Sequence record: OP114733
Length of the DNA stretch: 64,000 nt
Source of the DNA: Escherichia phage vB_EcoM-pEB20
Direction: 5' to 3' (one strand)
Positions 1,316-52,879 of the stretch are shown one piece after another. The notes beneath the pieces were generated by a model. It was not told the origin of the DNA. It did not search any database and worked only from the letters and a program-made list of their open reading frames with translations. Position 1 is the stretch's first letter, and each line of letters opens with the position of its first letter. A program made the translations under genes and the position numbers.

Positions 1316-1323
1316 TATTTATA
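1316..1323 (-). promoter_or_regulatory. late promoter TATAAATA for gene 24
   Basis: plus-strand tatttata (rc TATAAATA) about 28 bp upstream of gene 24 ATG. Confidence 0.6.
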
Positions 1324-1329
1324 AAGATT

Positions 1330-1359
1330 GTTTACAACGTATTTGGTATGTGATACTAT
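1330..1359 (+). promoter_or_regulatory. T4-type early promoter (GTTTAC -35, TACTAT -10)
   Basis: GTTTAC then about 18 bp then TACTAT, 30 bp upstream of the ORF at 1390. Confidence 0.45.
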
Positions 1360-1389
1360 AGACTTATCAACTACAGAGGAGTAAACAAA

Positions 1390-1659
1390 ATGACTAAAGC
1401 ACGTTTCTTACGAGATACTTTAAAAGTTCTAGAAGCTGAAGCAGTTAAGTTAGTAGAAAAATATGGTGCAAAAGTTAATGGTAATGCCTTCAACAAAGTA
1501 TGGATGAAAGTTGATTCTGAAGCTCGAGCTAAAGGTTATTGGGCCACTGATAAACTTGCATCATTCAAAAACAAAGATGGTTCTCCGGCATATGTCCAAG
1601 AAGGTATGCCTAATTGGCAAAATATTTTGAAAACTTACATCAAAATTGCACAGAAATAA
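1390..1659 (+). CDS. hypothetical protein (early cassette between genes 24 and 23)
   Basis: 89 aa ORF with GAGGAG SD; opposite strand to flanking late genes; occupies the position of segD in T4. Confidence 0.55.
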   Translation: MTKARFLRDTLKVLEAEAVKLVEKYGAKVNGNAFNKVWMKVDSEARAKGYWATDKLASFKNKDGSPAYVQEGMPNWQNILKTYIKIAQK

Positions 1660-1668
1660 AACCAAAAA

Positions 1669-1688
1669 TGGGAGACCGAAGTCTCCCA
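1669..1688 (-). terminator. hairpin terminator downstream of gene 23
   Basis: tgggagac-cgaa-gtctccca stem-loop followed on minus strand by TTTTTGG. Confidence 0.6.
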
Positions 1689-1711: not shown

Positions 1712-3280
1712 TTAGATGCCTTTTACATATACACGGCGGAAGTAAGCGTTCTTACCAAGGCTGTTCAGGATAGACGGCATACCGGACTGGATGCGAGCAC
1801 CTGGAGCCTGCAGGGAACTTTCAGCAAACGGGTTAACACCGATACCGTAACGAGTTTTAAAGCCCATTACCGGCTGGAAGTTCTTAGGATCGGAACCACG
1901 CAGTGGGGTAAGTGCAACGTAAGGAGCATAGTAAATACCTGCATCCATTTCGTTAGCGCCTTTGTAACCAACGGTGAAGTAATCCTGTTTAGCATACTGG
2001 TCGATGTATACGCGGTATTTACCACCAAGTACACCGGCAAATACAGACTTAGTAGTGTCGGTATTAAAACCAGAAGCCAGACCCTGTGCAGCGTAAGAAA
2101 TACCAGTATCAACTGAAGCCAGTACGTTAACTACGTTACGGGAAGCGATAATGAAGTTACCTTCACCACGACCGGTTTGACGAGCAATTTCAACTGCTTC
2201 TTTATCAATCTGGAACAACAGAGCTTTAAAGCTTTCGCCGGCCCAACGAGCACCACGGATATCAATCGGGTCCTGGAAGTCAAATACACCAGCTTTAGAA
2301 CCAACGATATTAGTCATACCAGATTTACCAACCTGAGCGGAGTAGTTAATCCAGTCAACAACTTCACGGTTGATTTCCAGCATAATTTCAGTAGCAAGAA
2401 TACCACTCAGTTCAGCATCAGCATCCATACCGTGTACTGCACGGAGGTCTTGTGCCAATTCGATAGAGTAAGCTGCTTTCAGCTGACGAGATTTAGCTTC
2501 AATAACTTGTTTGTCGATACGGAAGCCCATTTCGTTCCACGGGTTGTCGGTAGAACCATTGAAGCCTTCCTGAAGTTCAGCGATAGAAGTAGCCATACCT
2601 TCAGCGATTTCTACCAGTGCGCCAGCTTCCATTTGTTTGATAATTTCTGCATCTAATTTAGCTGCATCATCAGCACTTGAACTAATTGTTACTTGAGCAG
2701 AAGCTTGCAGATATACAGTACCAGTTTCCTGGAAGAAGTGAGTATAGATATCACCTACTGTGGTTTGTGTGCTAGCAGCCAGAGCTGGGAATTTCTTAGC
2801 AGCACCCTGACCAGAGAACATCGCATCTGGAGCATACATCGGATGGAAAGCTTCTTTAGCGCCAGCAGCGATAGGGTCTTTACCATATACTGCACGGAGA
2901 GCAAATACCTGACCGGTAGGGCTGTTCATAGGCTGAACACCACAAATATCAAAAGCGATCAGATTAGGAATAGCACGACGAACCATACCCATAACTGCTG
3001 GCCCAATCTGGGTTACTGCACCAGAGGTTTGACCTGCTGCGATGTTCTGAGCATTATAACCATGGTCACCACCAATTTCAGCTTCGGTCAAGAAAGAACC
3101 AAATGCCTGAGCGATTTTCTCGTCTTTATATTCAGGGGATACTTCGAAATCTTTTTCCTGGTTTTCGAAGATTTTAGCGATAATAGCCTGCTTGCTATTA
3201 GCGATTTCCGGCAGGCCTTCACCTTCCAGCAGTTCTTTCCATTTGTCTACGAGCTGAGCTTTAGTTTTGATAGTAGTCAT
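1712..3280 (-). CDS. 23: major capsid protein gp23
   Basis: 522 aa; N-terminus MTTIKTKAQLVDKWKELLEGEGLPEIANSKQA matches T4 gp23 from memory. Confidence 0.95.
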   Translation of the reverse strand: MTTIKTKAQLVDKWKELLEGEGLPEIANSKQAIIAKIFENQEKDFEVSPEYKDEKIAQAFGSFLTEAEIGGDHGYNAQNIAAGQTSGAVTQIGPAVMGMVRRAIPNLIAFDICGVQPMNSPTGQVFALRAVYGKDPIAAGAKEAFHPMYAPDAMFSGQGAAKKFPALAASTQTTVGDIYTHFFQETGTVYLQASAQVTISSSADDAAKLDAEIIKQMEAGALVEIAEGMATSIAELQEGFNGSTDNPWNEMGFRIDKQVIEAKSRQLKAAYSIELAQDLRAVHGMDADAELSGILATEIMLEINREVVDWINYSAQVGKSGMTNIVGSKAGVFDFQDPIDIRGARWAGESFKALLFQIDKEAVEIARQTGRGEGNFIIASRNVVNVLASVDTGISYAAQGLASGFNTDTTKSVFAGVLGGKYRVYIDQYAKQDYFTVGYKGANEMDAGIYYAPYVALTPLRGSDPKNFQPVMGFKTRYGIGVNPFAESSLQAPGARIQSGMPSILNSLGKNAYFRRVYVKGI

Positions 3281-3297: not shown

Positions 3298-4110
3298 TTA
3301 GAAACGAGATGCGACTTTCGCATATAAACTTACATTAGAATTCTGTTCTACCTGAGTTGTGGTAGTGTCAACTGCTTCGGCAACAAAATTAAGACCGGCA
3401 GCGTCATTGTCAACTGTATTTATACTTTCGGTAATAGCGGCTTCTTCTTTAGTAGAACCTTTAACCATTTCTACAATAGCAGTTAACTTAGTACCAAATG
3501 CGTCAGAATAATCCATACCTTCAACCAGGCCAATAACTTTTTCTTTCTGAGATTCAGTCAGGTCTTTTACGCTTTCATTAATAGCGGTTTCACGCTGAAC
3601 GTAATTGATATATGCATCACGTTTGGTAACTTCTTCGAACAAACGAGCGGTTTCTTCTTTATGTTCGGCCAGCTCTTCTTCCATTTCTGCTACAACATCT
3701 ACAGATTCTTCTGGAACAACAACGTTATGTTCAACAAACAGTTCTTTCAGACCACCAAGCATGGATTCGAACAAATCAGCTTTAATGCCTTTATCAACTG
3801 CGATTTGGTTTTCTGCGAGCCATTCTTTTGCAAGATGGTCCAGGAATTTAGAAGCTTGTTCAGCCAATTTTTTATCAGCTTTCTCTTCAGCATCTTCTTT
3901 AGCCTTTTCAACTTCTTCTTCGGCCTTTTCGGCGATGGCTTTGATATGAGATTCAGCCAGTTTGACTGCTTCCTGCTTAACGGTGGCTTCGAATACAGTG
4001 CTGAAATTAGCTTTAACGTCCGGAGACAGTTCTACTGATTCGAAAACACTATTAAGAGCAACTGAAGTCTCGATGTTCTGAGCTTCTTTCAAAAGTTGTT
4101 CTTTGATCAT
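3298..4110 (-). CDS. 22: prohead scaffolding core protein gp22
   Basis: 270 aa acidic, Glu/Lys-rich coiled-coil protein between 21 and 23. Confidence 0.85.
   Translation of the reverse strand: MIKEQLLKEAQNIETSVALNSVFESVELSPDVKANFSTVFEATVKQEAVKLAESHIKAIAEKAEEEVEKAKEDAEEKADKKLAEQASKFLDHLAKEWLAENQIAVDKGIKADLFESMLGGLKELFVEHNVVVPEESVDVVAEMEEELAEHKEETARLFEEVTKRDAYINYVQRETAINESVKDLTESQKEKVIGLVEGMDYSDAFGTKLTAIVEMVKGSTKEEAAITESINTVDNDAAGLNFVAEAVDTTTTQVEQNSNVSLYAKVASRF
3417..3424 (-). promoter_or_regulatory. candidate late promoter for gene 23 inside 3' end of gene 22
   Basis: rc TATAAATA about 137 bp upstream of gene 23 ATG; no closer match found. Confidence 0.3.
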
Positions 4111-21032: not shown

Positions 21033-21040
21033 ATTTATAG
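21033..21040 (-). promoter_or_regulatory. late promoter TATAAATA for gene 9
   Basis: rc TATAAATA 34 bp upstream of gene 9 ATG. Confidence 0.55.
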
Positions 21041-21050
21041 ATACAAAAAT

Positions 21051-21068
21051 GGGAGCCCGAAGGCTCCC
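21051..21068 (-). terminator. hairpin terminator after gene 8
   Basis: gggagcc-cgaa-ggctccc followed by TTTTT on minus strand. Confidence 0.6.
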
Positions 21069-21071
21069 TAA

Positions 21072-22076
21072 TTAAAACATAAACAAAATGTTAATTTCTT
21101 CTGTTTGGTCCATTGCCATAATAACAGGTGGTCGGTTTTCCATATAAATCATTTCACCGGAATGACGTTGCAGGTCTCTAGGGTCGTAATAATCCTTTTC
21201 TGCTTTAACATTAGGGTCATTTGGATTTTTCTTAGCTTCTAACGGGTTTGCGATAATTGATATCTGTCTAAAACCCTTGTTACCAGGCAAAGCTGCCTCA
21301 GGGAAATAAACAGAATCAAAATATGCTTTAAACCGCATCGTATTAGCTTTAACACGGTAAATCAAACCGTAGTCATCTTGTTGCCAAGTTAAGTTATTTT
21401 CATATCCCCAACGGGTGGGGTCTTCTTTAATTTCTTCCGGCCATGGAACTACAAGATATTCGTTAGTGCAACGGTTAATTGACACATCGGCAGGAATCTC
21501 ATAAAGGTATTCCCAAATATATCCATCACCGGTTTCGATAACCCCATTAGCATCGCCTCTGCCTTCAGGAGGAGACATAGAACGAACAGACGGAGTCCAT
21601 TTACCACCCAATTTAAGACATTCATCTTTATTATCTAAAGATTCTATTGAACAGAGCCCTACGTCAGGGACATCTAAACAACGGTAAATTAACCAACCGG
21701 CTCCAACTTCTGTCGCGTTGTACGGAGCAGTATTACATGCGACTATATCGTTAATTCTAAACGTGTAAGGGTCTGGATATCGCACATCTCCCCAATCACG
21801 TCTAGGAATAACAGAATCTAACATTGAAGGTAAAACTTTAACGGTACCCATCATATGGGTCCACATATCAGTAACACCAAGAACAGAATCTGTAGGATAA
21901 GGTGGGGCGAAGCCCACCTCATTTTCATTTGACGCCCAAGGCTCTGAACGTCCAAACGTAATATAAATGGAGTTCTTATCATCTCCATCCCCAACTGAAT
22001 TATAAAAATTCAGCATTTTCTCTGTTCTAAATTTTGATGTAACTATTGCACGATAGATAACACTTGAATCATTCAT
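21072..22076 (-). CDS. 8: baseplate wedge protein gp8
   Basis: 334 aa, same as T4 gp8. Confidence 0.88.
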   Translation of the reverse strand: MNDSSVIYRAIVTSKFRTEKMLNFYNSVGDGDDKNSIYITFGRSEPWASNENEVGFAPPYPTDSVLGVTDMWTHMMGTVKVLPSMLDSVIPRRDWGDVRYPDPYTFRINDIVACNTAPYNATEVGAGWLIYRCLDVPDVGLCSIESLDNKDECLKLGGKWTPSVRSMSPPEGRGDANGVIETGDGYIWEYLYEIPADVSINRCTNEYLVVPWPEEIKEDPTRWGYENNLTWQQDDYGLIYRVKANTMRFKAYFDSVYFPEAALPGNKGFRQISIIANPLEAKKNPNDPNVKAEKDYYDPRDLQRHSGEMIYMENRPPVIMAMDQTEEINILFMF

Positions 22077-33849: not shown

Positions 33850-34161
33850 ATGAAAACTTATCAAGAGTTTATCGCTGAAGCTACTAAAGCCGATAAAAAT
33901 TTTATTATTAACACCACCGGTCCGTTAGATGATGAATACGCTAATGCTATTATTAAGTCAATTTCTAATCAAGGCGTTGAAGTAACAAATTTCGAATATA
34001 AGAAAAATGATACTTATATGGTAATTAGTATCAAAAAAGGTTCAAAGGCTAAAATTAAATCTGCATTTGGTGTTATGCGAGTTGACCAAATTGATAACCA
34101 TGATTTTTCACAAACAGGGGTCAAACGCCAGAATACTATTTCATCTAAAGGCATAAAATAA
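33850..34161 (+). CDS. internal protein with capsid-targeting sequence
   Basis: N-terminus MKTYQEFIAE matches the T4 internal-protein CTS. Confidence 0.7.
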   Translation: MKTYQEFIAEATKADKNFIINTTGPLDDEYANAIIKSISNQGVEVTNFEYKKNDTYMVISIKKGSKAKIKSAFGVMRVDQIDNHDFSQTGVKRQNTISSKGIK

Positions 34162-34222: not shown

Positions 34223-34486
34223 ATGAAAACTTTCAACGAATTCATCTCAGAATCGTCTGGTATGAAAATTAACAAAGCGGTCAATCAGGTTATTGCTGAT
34301 ATTCTTAATTTGTATAACATTGACTTAACTCCGCATATCACGCTTGGTAACAAACGAAACTTTTTCGTATTTGACACATCCGAACTTGATGAAAATCAGT
34401 TCAATAACATTCAACGTTTTGCGAATGATAAAGGTCTTCGACACGAGCCTGGTGGCTATAAAAAATACGCAATATATTTGAAATAA
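34223..34486 (+). CDS. internal-protein-like (CTS variant)
   Basis: N-terminus MKTFNEFISE. Confidence 0.55.
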   Translation: MKTFNEFISESSGMKINKAVNQVIADILNLYNIDLTPHITLGNKRNFFVFDTSELDENQFNNIQRFANDKGLRHEPGGYKKYAIYLK

Positions 34487-35991: not shown

Positions 35992-36065
35992 GGCCCTGTA
36001 GCTCAACGGTTAGCAGCAGTCCCCTCATAAGGGAAAGGTTACCAGTTCGAATCTGGTCTGGGTCA
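35992..36065 (+). tRNA. tRNA with anticodon CAU (Ile2/Met type)
   Basis: cloverleaf folded by hand; anticodon loop CTCATAA; T-arm ACCAG-TTCGAAT-CTGGT; CCA not encoded. Confidence 0.7.
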
Positions 36066-36071
36066 TATATT

Positions 36072-36148
<77 letters not shown>

Positions 36149-36822: not shown

Positions 36823-36853
36823 AGCCCCTTCCGAAAGGTTGGGGCTTTTTTTT
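36823..36853 (+). terminator. rho-independent terminator
   Basis: agcccc-ttccgaaaggtt-ggggct followed by TTTTTTTT. Confidence 0.7.
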
Positions 36854-36897
36854 GCATAATAATAAATAGATAAGTTAATTAACTTAGGAAAAGTAAC

Positions 36898-37367: not shown

Positions 37368-37396
37368 TGCCCCTTCCTTATGGTTGGGGCCTTTTG
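37368..37396 (+). terminator. rho-independent terminator
   Basis: gcccc-ttccttatggtt-ggggc then CTTTTGG; same hairpin family as 36823 and 52604. Confidence 0.6.
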
Positions 37397-37428
37397 GTAT
37401 CTAGGGCATAAAAATATTTCATAAAGTT

Positions 37429-37458
37429 GTTTACTTCTTCCCTAGATGTGTTACTATA
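37429..37458 (+). promoter_or_regulatory. T4-type early promoter
   Basis: ataaagttGTTTAC then spacer then gtgTTACTAT; same architecture as 1330. Confidence 0.45.
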
Positions 37459-37791: not shown

Positions 37792-37859
37792 AAATAATGA
37801 TGTACAAGCACCAAGGATGGTGATACTATAGACTTATCAACTACAGAGGAGTAAACAAA

Positions 37860-38024
37860 ATGACTACTTTAATTATTTGGTTTGATGAAAATGAAGAAAC
37901 ATACTGTGTGAATATTGGTGAAAGTCCAATGCCTGAATTTGAATCCTCGGATAAAAACTCTGTTGTATCTTGGGCTGAAGGTTATAAAGCAGCTAAAGGT
38001 GACGTTGAAATAATTTACATCTAA
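37860..38024 (+). CDS. small hypothetical protein (54 aa)
   Basis: manually found; leader and first two codons identical to the ORF at 1390. Confidence 0.4.
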   Translation: MTTLIIWFDENEETYCVNIGESPMPEFESSDKNSVVSWAEGYKAAKGDVEIIYI

Positions 38025-38070
38025 GTAAGTTTATGTTATAGTAATCACAACAAATCAAGAGGAAAACAAA

Positions 38071-38298
38071 ATGGCTAAAGTTAGTATTGATGTCGTTGAT
38101 TATGAATACACTGAAGAAGTTATTCGCAACCGTCACCCTGAAGTTCGTATCGATTCAGTCCAAGATTCCAAGTTCTGGACAACCGAGCTTAATCTGAGTG
38201 GTCCTTATGAAGCTGTTAAGAAGTTCATGGTTGAAGAATACTGCGAAGGCATGCACCCCGAAGACGCCAAGTTTTATGTCAATTTGATTAAAAAATAA
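38071..38298 (+). CDS. hypothetical protein
   Basis: 75 aa ORF. Confidence 0.5.
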   Translation: MAKVSIDVVDYEYTEEVIRNRHPEVRIDSVQDSKFWTTELNLSGPYEAVKKFMVEEYCEGMHPEDAKFYVNLIKK

Positions 38299-41111: not shown

Positions 41112-41140
41112 GTTTACAACAAGATAGGGCTATGTTATAG
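41112..41140 (+). promoter_or_regulatory. early promoter in stem-loop cassette (PeSL-like)
   Basis: GTTTACA; inverted repeat atagggcta/tagtcctat around the -10. Confidence 0.45.
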
Positions 41141-45432: not shown

Positions 45433-45462
45433 GTTTACTTCCTCCAAGGACTTTGATACTAT
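45433..45462 (+). promoter_or_regulatory. early promoter with flanking inverted repeat
   Basis: GTTTAC; cctccaag ... cttggagg inverted repeat spans the -10 and includes the denV SD. Confidence 0.45.
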
Positions 45463-45489
45463 ACATTCATCAACTACTTGGAGGAAATT

Positions 45490-45903
45490 ATGACCCGTAT
45501 CAATTTAACACTTGTTTCTGAACTGTCCGACCAACATCTTATGGCTGAGTATCGTGAATTACCACGCGTATTTGGTGCAGTCCGTAAACATGTTCAAAAC
45601 GGTAAACGTGTAAAGGATTTTAAAATCTCTCCAACATTTATCTTAGGCACAGGTCACGTAACATTCTTTTACGACAAACTCGAATTTTTACGTTTACGAC
45701 AAATCGAGCTAATCGCTGAATGCTTGAAACGTGGTTTCAAAATCAAGGACACGACTGTCCAGGATATTTCCGACATCCCTGCCGAATTTCGTAATAATTA
45801 TGTCCCGTCCGAAGCGTCCATTGCGATAAGTCAAGCACGCTTAGATGAAAAAATTGCTCAACGTCCGACTTGGTACAAATACTATGGTAAATCAATTTAC
45901 TAA
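45490..45903 (+). CDS. denV: endonuclease V (pyrimidine dimer DNA glycosylase) DenV
   Basis: [12 protein letters not shown]...[17 protein letters not shown] matches T4 DenV; 137 aa. Confidence 0.95.
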
Positions 45904-48990: not shown

Positions 48991-49020
48991 GTTTACTTCT
49001 CCTCTAGTTGTGTTACTATA
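48991..49020 (+). promoter_or_regulatory. early promoter with flanking inverted repeat
   Basis: GTTTAC; cctctagttg ... caactagagg flanks the -10 and includes the regB SD. Confidence 0.45.
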
Positions 49021-49047
49021 GACCTGTCAACTAGAGGAGAAATCAAA

Positions 49048-49506
49048 ATGACTATCAATTCAGACGTTTTTATCCGCCGTAATAAACTCCGTCGAATCTT
49101 TGAAACGGAGTTCCGCAAAATAAATGCCGGTATAAAAGATGCTGCAAAGTCTCTTGGACTACCAGGCTTTCATATCAAGTATTCTCAACATCTCTTAGAT
49201 CGTGCCATCCAGAGAGAAATAGATGAGAATTACGTTTTTGAATTATTTCATAAAGTAAAAAATCACGTTAAAGAAGTTGCAGAATTTTTGTCAATGCCGG
49301 CACGTCCAGATGTTGATGAAGATTTTGTCGAAGGTGTCGAGTATCGTCCAGGCCGTTTAGAAATAACTGACGGAAATCTTTGGTTAGGACTTACAGTTTG
49401 TCGCGAAAATCCGGCATTCAAAATGAAGACTCTTCAATGCAGAATGGCTATTATTAACAGTAAACGACTACCAGGAAAAGCTTCTAAAGCAGTGATTAAA
49501 ATCTAG
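49048..49506 (+). CDS. regB: RegB site-specific endoribonuclease
   Basis: 152 aa; MTINSDVFIRRNKLRR...KYSQHLLDRAIQREIDE...RLPGKASKAVIK matches T4 RegB. Confidence 0.92.
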   Translation: MTINSDVFIRRNKLRRIFETEFRKINAGIKDAAKSLGLPGFHIKYSQHLLDRAIQREIDENYVFELFHKVKNHVKEVAEFLSMPARPDVDEDFVEGVEYRPGRLEITDGNLWLGLTVCRENPAFKMKTLQCRMAIINSKRLPGKASKAVIKI

Positions 49507-52603: not shown

Positions 52604-52633
52604 TAGCCCCTTCCTTATGGTTGGGGCTTTTTG
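52604..52633 (+). terminator. rho-independent terminator
   Basis: agcccc-ttccttatggtt-ggggct followed by TTTTTGG. Confidence 0.65.
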
Positions 52634-52643
52634 GCATCTATCA

Positions 52644-52672
52644 GTTTACTTCTCCTCAGGTTGTGTTATAGT
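52644..52672 (+). promoter_or_regulatory. T4-type early promoter
   Basis: GTTTAC; -10 gtgTTATAGT; partial inverted repeat ctcctc ... gaggag. Confidence 0.4.
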
Positions 52673-52699
52673 AGTCCTTACTTACTAGAGGAGAACGTT

Positions 52700-52879
52700 A
52701 TGACACGTAAAGAAAAGATTTCTAAGTTAATGTTTTTGATTGAAGAGTACGCTAATGCGGTATCTGATTGGGAAAATGCCCATGGTTGCGAAGATGGAGA
52801 CATCGACATTAACAGAGCTATGAAAAAGATGGCCGAAGCCCACACCGAATTGCAAATGTATGTTAACGAGATTATGTGA
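52700..52879 (+). CDS. hypothetical protein (rI.1 position)
   Basis: ATG MTRKEKISKL after GAGGAGAA. Confidence 0.5.
   Translation: MTRKEKISKLMFLIEEYANAVSDWENAHGCEDGDIDINRAMKKMAEAHTELQMYVNEIM

Follow-up and report, generated by a model that had tools for sequence, protein, structure and literature searches.

Within a 64,000-nucleotide (nt) stretch of Escherichia phage vB_EcoM-pEB20 (OP114733; hereafter the window), we analyzed the gap between the capsid genes 24 and 23, which holds a mini-gene of 89 amino acids (aa) on the opposite strand, and a 47-bp sequence of this gap, running from the −10 element through the leader and Shine–Dalgarno (SD) sequence to the start of the mini-gene, that recurs at a second locus (copy 2). 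The window belongs to an RB69-like T-even phage of the genus Mosigvirus, and the 601 bases round the gap are 99.2–99.5% identical to many relatives, among them O157 typing phage 3, ST0, HX01, JS09, PhAPEC2 and SA79RD.

At the left end of the gap, the late promoter of gene 24 and a sigma-70-type early promoter reading the other way stand back-to-back (Table 1). An earlier sequence-only reading of this DNA had described this promoter pair, the opposite-strand open reading frame (ORF) behind a GTTTAC/TACTAT early-type promoter, and a hairpin serving as the gene 23 terminator, and we found all of these in place. What it had missed is that the gene and its promoters are already annotated or predicted in relatives, and that the ORF has long occupied the gap. 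The gene 24 late promoter is annotated as T4-late in SA79RD and is predicted in RB69 as Pl:109573. The early promoters of both repeat copies stand in the RB69 prediction list as Pe:109605 and Pe:72567, with early-promoter hidden Markov model (HMM) scores of 29.9 for the gap site and 33 for the copy 2 site (Nolan et al. 2006 PMC1524935). Both resemble the T4-type early promoter, whose consensus is GTTTAC(N14)gtggTAttaT with an A/T-rich upstream region (Miller et al. 2003), in the GTTTAC box, the 17–18 nt spacer, gtgaTAyTAT and the A/T-rich upstream sequence, the only difference being the −35 of copy 2, which as ATGTAC is weaker than the GTTTAC of the gap promoter. The AT-rich sequence of the late promoter occupies the expected place of an UP element for the divergent early promoter, and the spacing would put the start of the early transcript near A1366. 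The leader of ∼24 nt is unstructured as RNA (folding z +1.3).

The hairpin at the other end of the gap acts differently on the two strands. On the minus strand, an 8-bp stem with a UUCG loop is followed by TTTTTGGTTT and folds at −16.5 kcal/mol, while on the plus strand the same hairpin (−13.5 kcal/mol) is followed by AAAAUAAG without a U-run, and an intrinsic-terminator score is obtained on the minus strand only, where the T-run lies. JS98 and metagenomic relatives have the hairpin unchanged. An Rfam search of the gap returned chance-level matches only, far under the gathering scores.

The 89-aa ORF belongs to phrog_6003 (PHROGs), a family without assigned function, and carries a hypothetical-protein annotation in ∼120 relatives; Pfam gave only a sub-threshold match to DUF4859 (17.9 bits versus a cut-off of 22.6). 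The protein is basic, with an isoelectric point (pI) of 9.8, and its AlphaFold model (pLDDT 83.6) shows a helix, a second helix, a beta hairpin and a further helix. This model found no match in PDB (best TM 0.28) and only its own diverged allele in BFVD, and as modeled the protein has an orphan fold. By tblastn, the ORF is found in 239 phage records, ∼120 of them at 80% identity or more and all of Mosigvirus type, the other 119 below 60%. Between their genes 24 and 23, JS98 (Dhakavirus) and VR20 (Gaprivervirus) have a distant allele (33–37% aa identity), with strand and promoter type as in the window, and metagenomic relatives at 61–71% aa identity also occupy the 23–24 gap. Since homologues with other leaders thus hold the same place across genera, the gene's residence in the gap is old. 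Judged by its substitutions (pN 0.19–0.21 versus pS 0.69–0.78; dN/dS ∼0.13 for JS98 versus LF82-3), it is a real gene under purifying selection. It is also apparently dispensable: it is absent from T2 and T4, it is broken by frameshift and reduced to a 51-aa fragment in mogra (65653–65918), and in the RB69 reference (NC_004928, 109291–109531; annotated as ORF188c and ORF189c) it is split by two frameshifts, which could be those of a real pseudogene or old sequencing errors.

Table 1. Coordinates of the 23–24 gap, its borders and the second repeat locus in the window
Feature	Position	Strand	Details
Gene 24 (capsid vertex protein)	5–1288	−	427-aa ORF; head vertex protein in 99%-identical SA79RD; left gap border
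Late promoter of gene 24, TATAAATA (TATTTATA on plus strand)	1316–1323	−	Direct reading
−35 GTTTAC of early (sigma-70) promoter	1330–1335	+	6 bp from late promoter; early promoter annotated in SA79RD
47-bp repeat, copy 1	1350–1396	+	Extended −10, ∼24-nt leader, SD, ATG ACT A
Extended −10 TGaTACTAT	1351–1359	+	TACTAT 1354–1359; 18-nt spacer; TG in front
Shine–Dalgarno GAGGAG	1376–1381	+	8 nt before ATG
89-aa ORF	1390–1659	+	ATG at 1390; stop codon 1657–1659
Intrinsic terminator of gene 23	1659–1688	−	Stem 1669–1688 (UGGGAGAC-UUCG-GUCUCCCA on minus strand); T-run 1668–1659
Gene 23 (major capsid protein)	1712–3280	−	ORF list and SA79RD annotation; right gap border
Gene 22	3298–4110	−	
Early promoter of copy 2	37800–37829	+	ATGTAC 37800–37805; 18-nt spacer; TGaTACTAT 37821–37829
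47-bp repeat, copy 2	37820–37866	+	Exact match also in RB69, mogra, LF82-3
54-aa acidic ORF (pI 4.05; phrog_5461; RB69ORF145c)	37860–38024	+	e-to-tRNA variable region
Next early cassette	38013–38073	+	ATTTAC-18-TATAGT ... AGAGGAAAACAAAATG; precedes Frd3-domain ORF 38071–38298

Two identical members of a cassette family

The 47-mer GTGATACTATAGACTTATCAACTACAGAGGAGTAAACAAAATGACTA occurs exactly twice in the window, both times on the plus strand, with no third copy at up to three mismatches and none in 100 dinucleotide shuffles. The sequence-only reading had reported this stretch as −10, leader, SD and first two codons repeated exactly ∼36.5 kb away in front of a different small ORF, and the pairwise alignment of the two copies is indeed identical, with an identity that starts and ends abruptly at both sides; the small ORF follows as described. 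In a metagenome scan, the 47-mer was found in the same two contexts only, without a third locus, and its 23-nt core was absent from a scan of IMG/VR.

The gene behind copy 2 is unrelated to the 89-aa ORF. Upstream of its −35, copy 2 has an A-rich sequence, AAAAATTAAAAATAATG, containing the TAA stop of the upstream ORF, whereas the AT-rich region upstream of copy 1 is the late promoter and leader of the divergent gene 24, without an upstream-gene stop codon. The genes for tRNA-Met and tRNA-Arg lie at 35992–36148, and in RB69 the locus of copy 2 stands between e.8 and an frd.3-like gene. The 54-aa protein downstream of copy 2 is 98% identical between Mosigvirus and T2-type phages with a DNA identity of only ∼86%, an unusually strong conservation for an uncharacterised small early protein.

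The earlier reading had treated the repeat as a duplication, and while its exactness stands, the pair is not isolated: it is the closest pair among about 20 related cassettes. Repeat finding and a promoter scan gave ∼20 early promoter–leader cassettes on the plus strand of the window, laid out as a GTTTAC-like box, 17–18 nt, TAyTAT or TATAGT, often AGACCTATCAA or AGTCCTATCAA, GGAG, and an ATG 25–35 nt past the −10. Compared over the 47 positions, 20 cassettes give 190 pairs with a mean identity of 50% (sd 12%). Apart from the two copies, the closest pair has 78.7%, and exact runs extend to 30 nt at most; were each site to match with a probability of 0.787, all 47 would do so with a probability of 1.3e-5. 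The pair of cassettes starting at 1330 and 37800 is far outside the family distribution. With 100% identity against 78.7% at most in the other pairs, we therefore conclude that this pair was homogenised by recombination. Beyond the window, alc, regB, denV and frd.3 of other T-even genera have versions of the 47-mer upstream at 85–87% identity, and the gap leader of JS98 has 31 nt exactly in common with a different window cassette, that at 37450.

Such cassettes resemble the PeSLs (promoter-early stem-loops), composite conserved units that lie at indel borders and whose crossovers fall in the interval from the −10 to the SD or ATG (Arbiol et al. 2010 PMC2839356; Comeau et al. 2014 PMC4122927). 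In RB49, crossovers in this interval were mapped experimentally (Arbiol et al. 2010 PMC2839356). PeSLs were earlier described for RB49/phi1, T4/PST and KVP40/nt-1 (PMC2839356; PMC4122927), and none of RB69-like phages is described in Arbiol et al. 2010 (PMC2839356) or Comeau et al. 2014 (PMC4122927). Like a PeSL, both 47-mer cassettes have sigma-70-like −35 and −10 boxes (here with an 18-nt spacer, in PeSLs ∼17 nt), a short leader, and GAGGAG-8 nt-ATG at the 3′ end; as in PeSLs, the copies are many (∼20) and dispersed before small early ORFs, and chimeric cassettes stand at the borders of indels and replacements. The AT-rich region ahead of the −35, which in a PeSL typically contains the preceding gene's stop codon, is of this type at copy 2, and at copy 1 it is the late promoter and leader of gene 24. 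Differences from known PeSLs are that one cassette lies inside the capsid block, back-to-back with a late promoter and with the hairpin at the gene's far end, and that the exchange would have joined cassettes 36.5 kb apart without moving a gene.

Chimeric junctions in relatives and the gap as a slot

Several relatives carry junctions that fall inside these cassettes, with crossovers between the −10 and the SD or ATG in SF, SHSML-52-1 and LF82-3. SF has no 54-aa ORF: its sequence passes from the first 32 nt of the 47-mer straight into AAACAAAATGGCT of the following cassette, which places the crossover in the common AAACAAAATG, just 3′ of GAGGAG in copy 2. SHSML-52-1 lost the 54-aa ORF via a different chimera, in which a T2-like promoter half is joined to an frd.3-type leader near TATCAA. 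The recombination partner of copy 2 in both deletions is the cassette at 38013–38073. Mogra and SHSML-52-1 have a different gene upstream of copy 2, with the junction at the cassette border, and in RB69 a different module upstream of the neighbouring ORF is likewise joined at a cassette border.

At the gap itself, a sliding comparison of LF82-3 gives ∼100% window-like sequence from gene 24 across the promoter as far as GAGGAG, 32 nt into the 47-mer, then ∼94% JS98-like sequence across the ORF followed by a 57%-identical SegD homologue, and again ∼100% window-like sequence from the hairpin into gene 23. Since the similarity switches at these places, the breakpoints of the swap are the SD on the left and the hairpin on the right. 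The same borders recur more widely. The gap opens with the late promoter followed after 5–6 nt by an early-type −35 in the window, JS98, VR20, T4 and three metagenomic lineages, and it ends with a GC hairpin with a CGAA/UUCG loop; in T2 the gap is empty, the late promoter being followed directly by the hairpin. The cargo is segD in T4, allele A of the 89-aa ORF in the window, allele B in JS98 and VR20, and allele B together with the SegD homologue in LF82-3. In the window gap, the 89-aa ORF is the sole ORF and no GIY-YIG endonuclease is present. By these comparisons, the 23–24 gap is a polymorphic cassette slot with fixed borders. As a single dispensable accessory gene with its own promoter and an end hairpin between two essential late genes, the mini-gene resembles a phage moron; it differs from one in being early, on the opposite strand and in a lytic phage, and in being exchanged via conserved flanking signals instead of by illegitimate insertion.

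That T4 carries segD here, as the sequence-only reading had it, is borne out by the synteny comparison, and segD, too, lies on the opposite strand. The two loci agree in slot, orientation, divergent late/early geometry and the form of the hairpin before gene 23; they differ in that the window cargo is an unrelated 89-aa protein and no endonuclease, and T4 is without that ORF. In T4 (AF158101, 106561–107322), TATTTATA, 5 nt, ATTTAC, an 18-nt spacer, TGaTATTAT, GGAG and ATG follow one another upstream of segD. A review of T4 reported that no segD-specific promoter had been found (Edgell 2010), and in the literature on segD transcription we found no mapped segD start site.

Published gene-level T4 RNA-seq counts at 5 min after infection, from a stranded library whose counting mode is not stated, bear on this promoter. 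From wild type to the motA-am mutant, counts went from 43447 to 429 for rnlB, from 5297 to 133 for gene 24, from 1952 to 749 for segD and from 3194 to 541 for gene 23, and the fold values in a ΔdksA versus a wild-type host are 0.68, 0.78, 2.5 and 2.1, respectively. Thus segD and gene 23 rise in the dksA deletion like early-promoter transcripts, and rnlB and gene 24 do not. Per base, the motA-am counts are ∼1.1 reads/bp for segD, 0.10 for gene 24 and 0.43 for rnlB. The counts fit a MotA-independent start in the homologous T4 gap with some read-through into gene 23, which is suggestive only, and we regard an early promoter upstream of T4 segD as probable.

Origin of the identity and competing explanations

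Taken together, the explanation we favor, with a probability of roughly 0.72, is that the gap is a self-contained early transcription unit in a cassette slot, and that the 47-bp identity stems from past exchange or conversion between PeSL-type cassettes. Under this explanation, the host sigma-70 promoter GTTTAC-18-TGaTACTAT, 6 bp from the divergent late promoter, would start a transcript near 1366, and its unstructured leader of ∼24 nt with a strong SD would allow immediate translation of the basic 89-aa accessory protein. The hairpin would end gene 23 transcripts, and on the plus strand, lacking a U-tract, it may mark or stabilise the 3′ end of the early RNA. The dispersed cassettes would serve both as portable expression signals and as homology patches for the very active phage recombination, such that a single exchange or gene conversion between the gap cassette and that of the 54-aa ORF, before the sequenced Mosigviruses diverged, would have removed all differences between the copies over the stretch from extended −10 to codon 2. 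Where relatives lost or swapped adjoining genes, the breakpoints would again be these cassettes and the terminator hairpin.

As to age, the exchange would predate the sequenced Mosigviruses, because copy 2 carries the 47-mer unchanged in RB69, mogra and LF82-3 as well. Ongoing concerted evolution of the two copies was considered and is ruled out by private changes in RB69, in one metagenomic gap copy and in one metagenomic copy 2. In some genomes the copies have therefore drifted independently, and the homogenisation is a past event, not a continuing one.

For the direction of the exchange, copy 2 was compared with T2 as outgroup, and the gap with JS98, VR20 and three metagenomic lineages. In the T2 orthologue of copy 2, the flanks are conserved (of the 22 nt upstream, 2 differ), but the leader is 6 nt longer and divergent, which suggests a leader replacement at copy 2. 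The 5′ part of the 47-mer, TATAGACTTATCAA, matches this same orthologue, as does the part AGACTTATCAA, which was not found in the gaps of three allele-A relatives and has a close variant, AGACCTATCAA, in the JS98 gap. CAACTA..GGAG..ATGACTAAA resembles the gap of a diverged relative. The motifs used for these comparisons recur in many cassettes. We had also considered the second codon, ACT, as an import from copy 2, and dropped this idea, as ATGACTAAA is also the start in a relative at 71% identity whose leader is different.

A number of observations weigh against exchange between PeSL-type cassettes, or against parts of this account. The stem-loop of the PeSL definition, which lies between −35 and −10, across the −10 or directly ahead of the promoter, is missing in both 47-mer cassettes (folding z from −35 to ATG of −1.4 for copy 1 and −0.7 for copy 2), and is present in other window cassettes, at 41112 (z −2.8), 48991 (z −3.9) and 45433 (z −4.7). 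In some genomes the copies differ: 3 mismatches are seen in the RB69 gap copy, ATGTCTA in one metagenomic gap copy, and GTGG in copy 2 of one metagenomic genome. The direction signals conflict, pointing both ways. The sequences, the cassette family, the outlying identity of the pair and the chimeric junctions of relatives are observed directly; promoter activity, start site and early timing of the gap transcript, along with the timing and direction of the conversion, are things we infer, and the T4 read counts are possibly not strand-specific.

Among the alternatives, an unlikely one is that selection kept the copies identical because both genes need the same initiation sequence, either as stoichiometrically co-expressed partners or through a shared operator of an RNA-binding regulator or RegB cleavage at GGAG. 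The repeat spans just the unit needed for function, from the −10 through leader and SD to the start codon, the products are oppositely charged (pI 9.8 versus 4.05), the 47-mer is exact at both loci in many independent genomes, and GGAG-containing leaders are the known RegB target type. Against this, other early cassettes work at only ∼50% identity, and the identity includes DNA upstream of the inferred start that an RNA operator would not need. Nor do the two genes travel together: SF and SHSML-52-1 keep the 89-aa ORF without the 54-aa ORF, in T2 the 54-aa ORF follows another leader and the 23–24 gap is empty, and RB69 and mogra have an apparently broken 89-aa ORF beside an intact copy 2. An obligate partnership of the two proteins is ruled out by these presence/absence patterns. 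We consider it quite unlikely that the gap promoter is unused and that the ORF is expressed, if at all, by read-through, with transcripts from middle promoters ahead of rnlB crossing gene 24 in antisense, the repeat being a neutral relic. Such read-through was proposed for T4 segD, no segD-specific promoter was found in T4 according to the review noted above, and the 3-fold decrease of segD RNA in motA-am makes it partly middle-dependent; however, in the same mutant segD keeps far more reads per base than gene 24 directly upstream or rnlB, the −35, the extended −10 and the spacing to the late promoter are conserved across genera though the spacer sequences differ, and the HMM score of the RB69 gap promoter speaks against a dead site.

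Two further scenarios concern how the repeat came about. A recent mobile insertion of the 89-aa gene from the e-tRNA region via a PeSL mini-circle, leader included, has a documented precedent in RB49, where mini-circles with one ORF and one chimeric cassette are known (Arbiol et al. 2010 PMC2839356), and the gap is polymorphic, being empty in T2 and holding segD in T4. We nonetheless find such an insertion very improbable, given that in Dhakavirus, Gaprivervirus and three metagenomic lineages homologues of the ORF stand in the same gap, framed by a like promoter pair and hairpin, that integration of a circle would leave two flanking cassettes and only one is present, and that no paralogue of the 89-aa ORF lies near copy 2. 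Chance, or convergence on the early-promoter consensus, is hardly credible: parts of the 47-mer (TAyTATAGACyTATCAA, GAGGAG and AAACAAAATG) do recur in other cassettes, yet the shuffles gave no match, and both the much lower identity of the next-best pair and the small calculated probability of 47 matches set the identity apart.

Seen as an exchange between cassettes, the locus is no element of a new kind; it exemplifies a known mechanism, that of the PeSL-type cassettes, at a hypothetical gene that had been annotated before. Its value would lie in a clean natural record of how T-even genes are rewired, with the same cassette seen in five states: as an exact copy at two loci, as a chimeric deletion scar formed in two independent ways, as the left border of an endonuclease tract, as the conserved partner of a late promoter across genera, and absent in the empty gap of T2. 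With this locus, the PeSL concept comes to cover RB69-like phages and a location within the capsid gene block, and it shows that a replaceable slot can be delimited by a cassette plus a terminator hairpin. The most interesting by-products are the slot-like 23–24 gap itself and the probable early promoter upstream of T4 segD, a gene long described without a promoter and now suggested to sit behind a conserved early one. A broader picture would join these by-products: the gap would be an integron-like landing slot across T-even genera, with a fixed promoter pair and hairpin and exchangeable cargo, the early promoter of the slot would be the one that T4 segD has seemed to lack, and the early transcript, which for want of a U-tract behind the hairpin would run antisense into gene 23, would supply the long-known ‘anti-late RNA’ from a defined place and hold down gp23 expression before its time. 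As a whole, we hold this combination to be doubtful and put it forward tentatively.

Other early cassettes and neighboring features

Some cassettes of the window carry secondary structures of their own. Those at 34161, 34489, 41112, 42407 and 53093 (also 57214, 33784 and 38298) form a subfamily with a 9-bp inverted repeat across the −10 (ATAGGACTA tgt TATAG TAGTCCTAT), which is the stem-loop position described for RB49 PeSLs. In those at 48991–49052 and 45433–45493 (also 52644–52706), the spacer is complementary to the cassette's own SD region (CTCCTCTAG..CTAGAGGAG and CCTCCAAG..CTTGGAGG, respectively), and read-through RNA of the first two, with folding energies of −21.6 and −17.8 kcal/mol (z −3.9 and −4.7), would mask the SD. 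Transcripts from the cassettes' own promoters are without the 5′ arm, as in the read-through control of T4 e, 49, soc and I-TevI, though here the promoters are early. Near-identical GC hairpins, GCCCCTTCCTTATGGTTGGGGC, stand directly before early cassettes at 37369–37403, 52606–52640 and 36824–36858 (94% identity between two copies), and with these cassettes they make terminator-plus-promoter composites in the classic PeSL layout.

Five small ORFs at 34223, 36898, 45150, 46236 and 46576 start MK(T/S)Y..EF(I/L)(S/T/A)E, with 73–80% DNA identity over the first 30 nt, and may be either a paralogous early protein family or bearers of a common N-terminal module. A second hairpin, GGGAGCCCGAAGGCTCCC, lies at 21037–21086, with flanks 78% identical to the gene 23 terminator region. 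Lastly, the metagenomic contig ERZ27245996 k123_278436, from a T-even relative, has at 337–2901 two tandem gene 24-like genes of the Gp23 family (427 and 426 aa) upstream of the gap, where the others have one.

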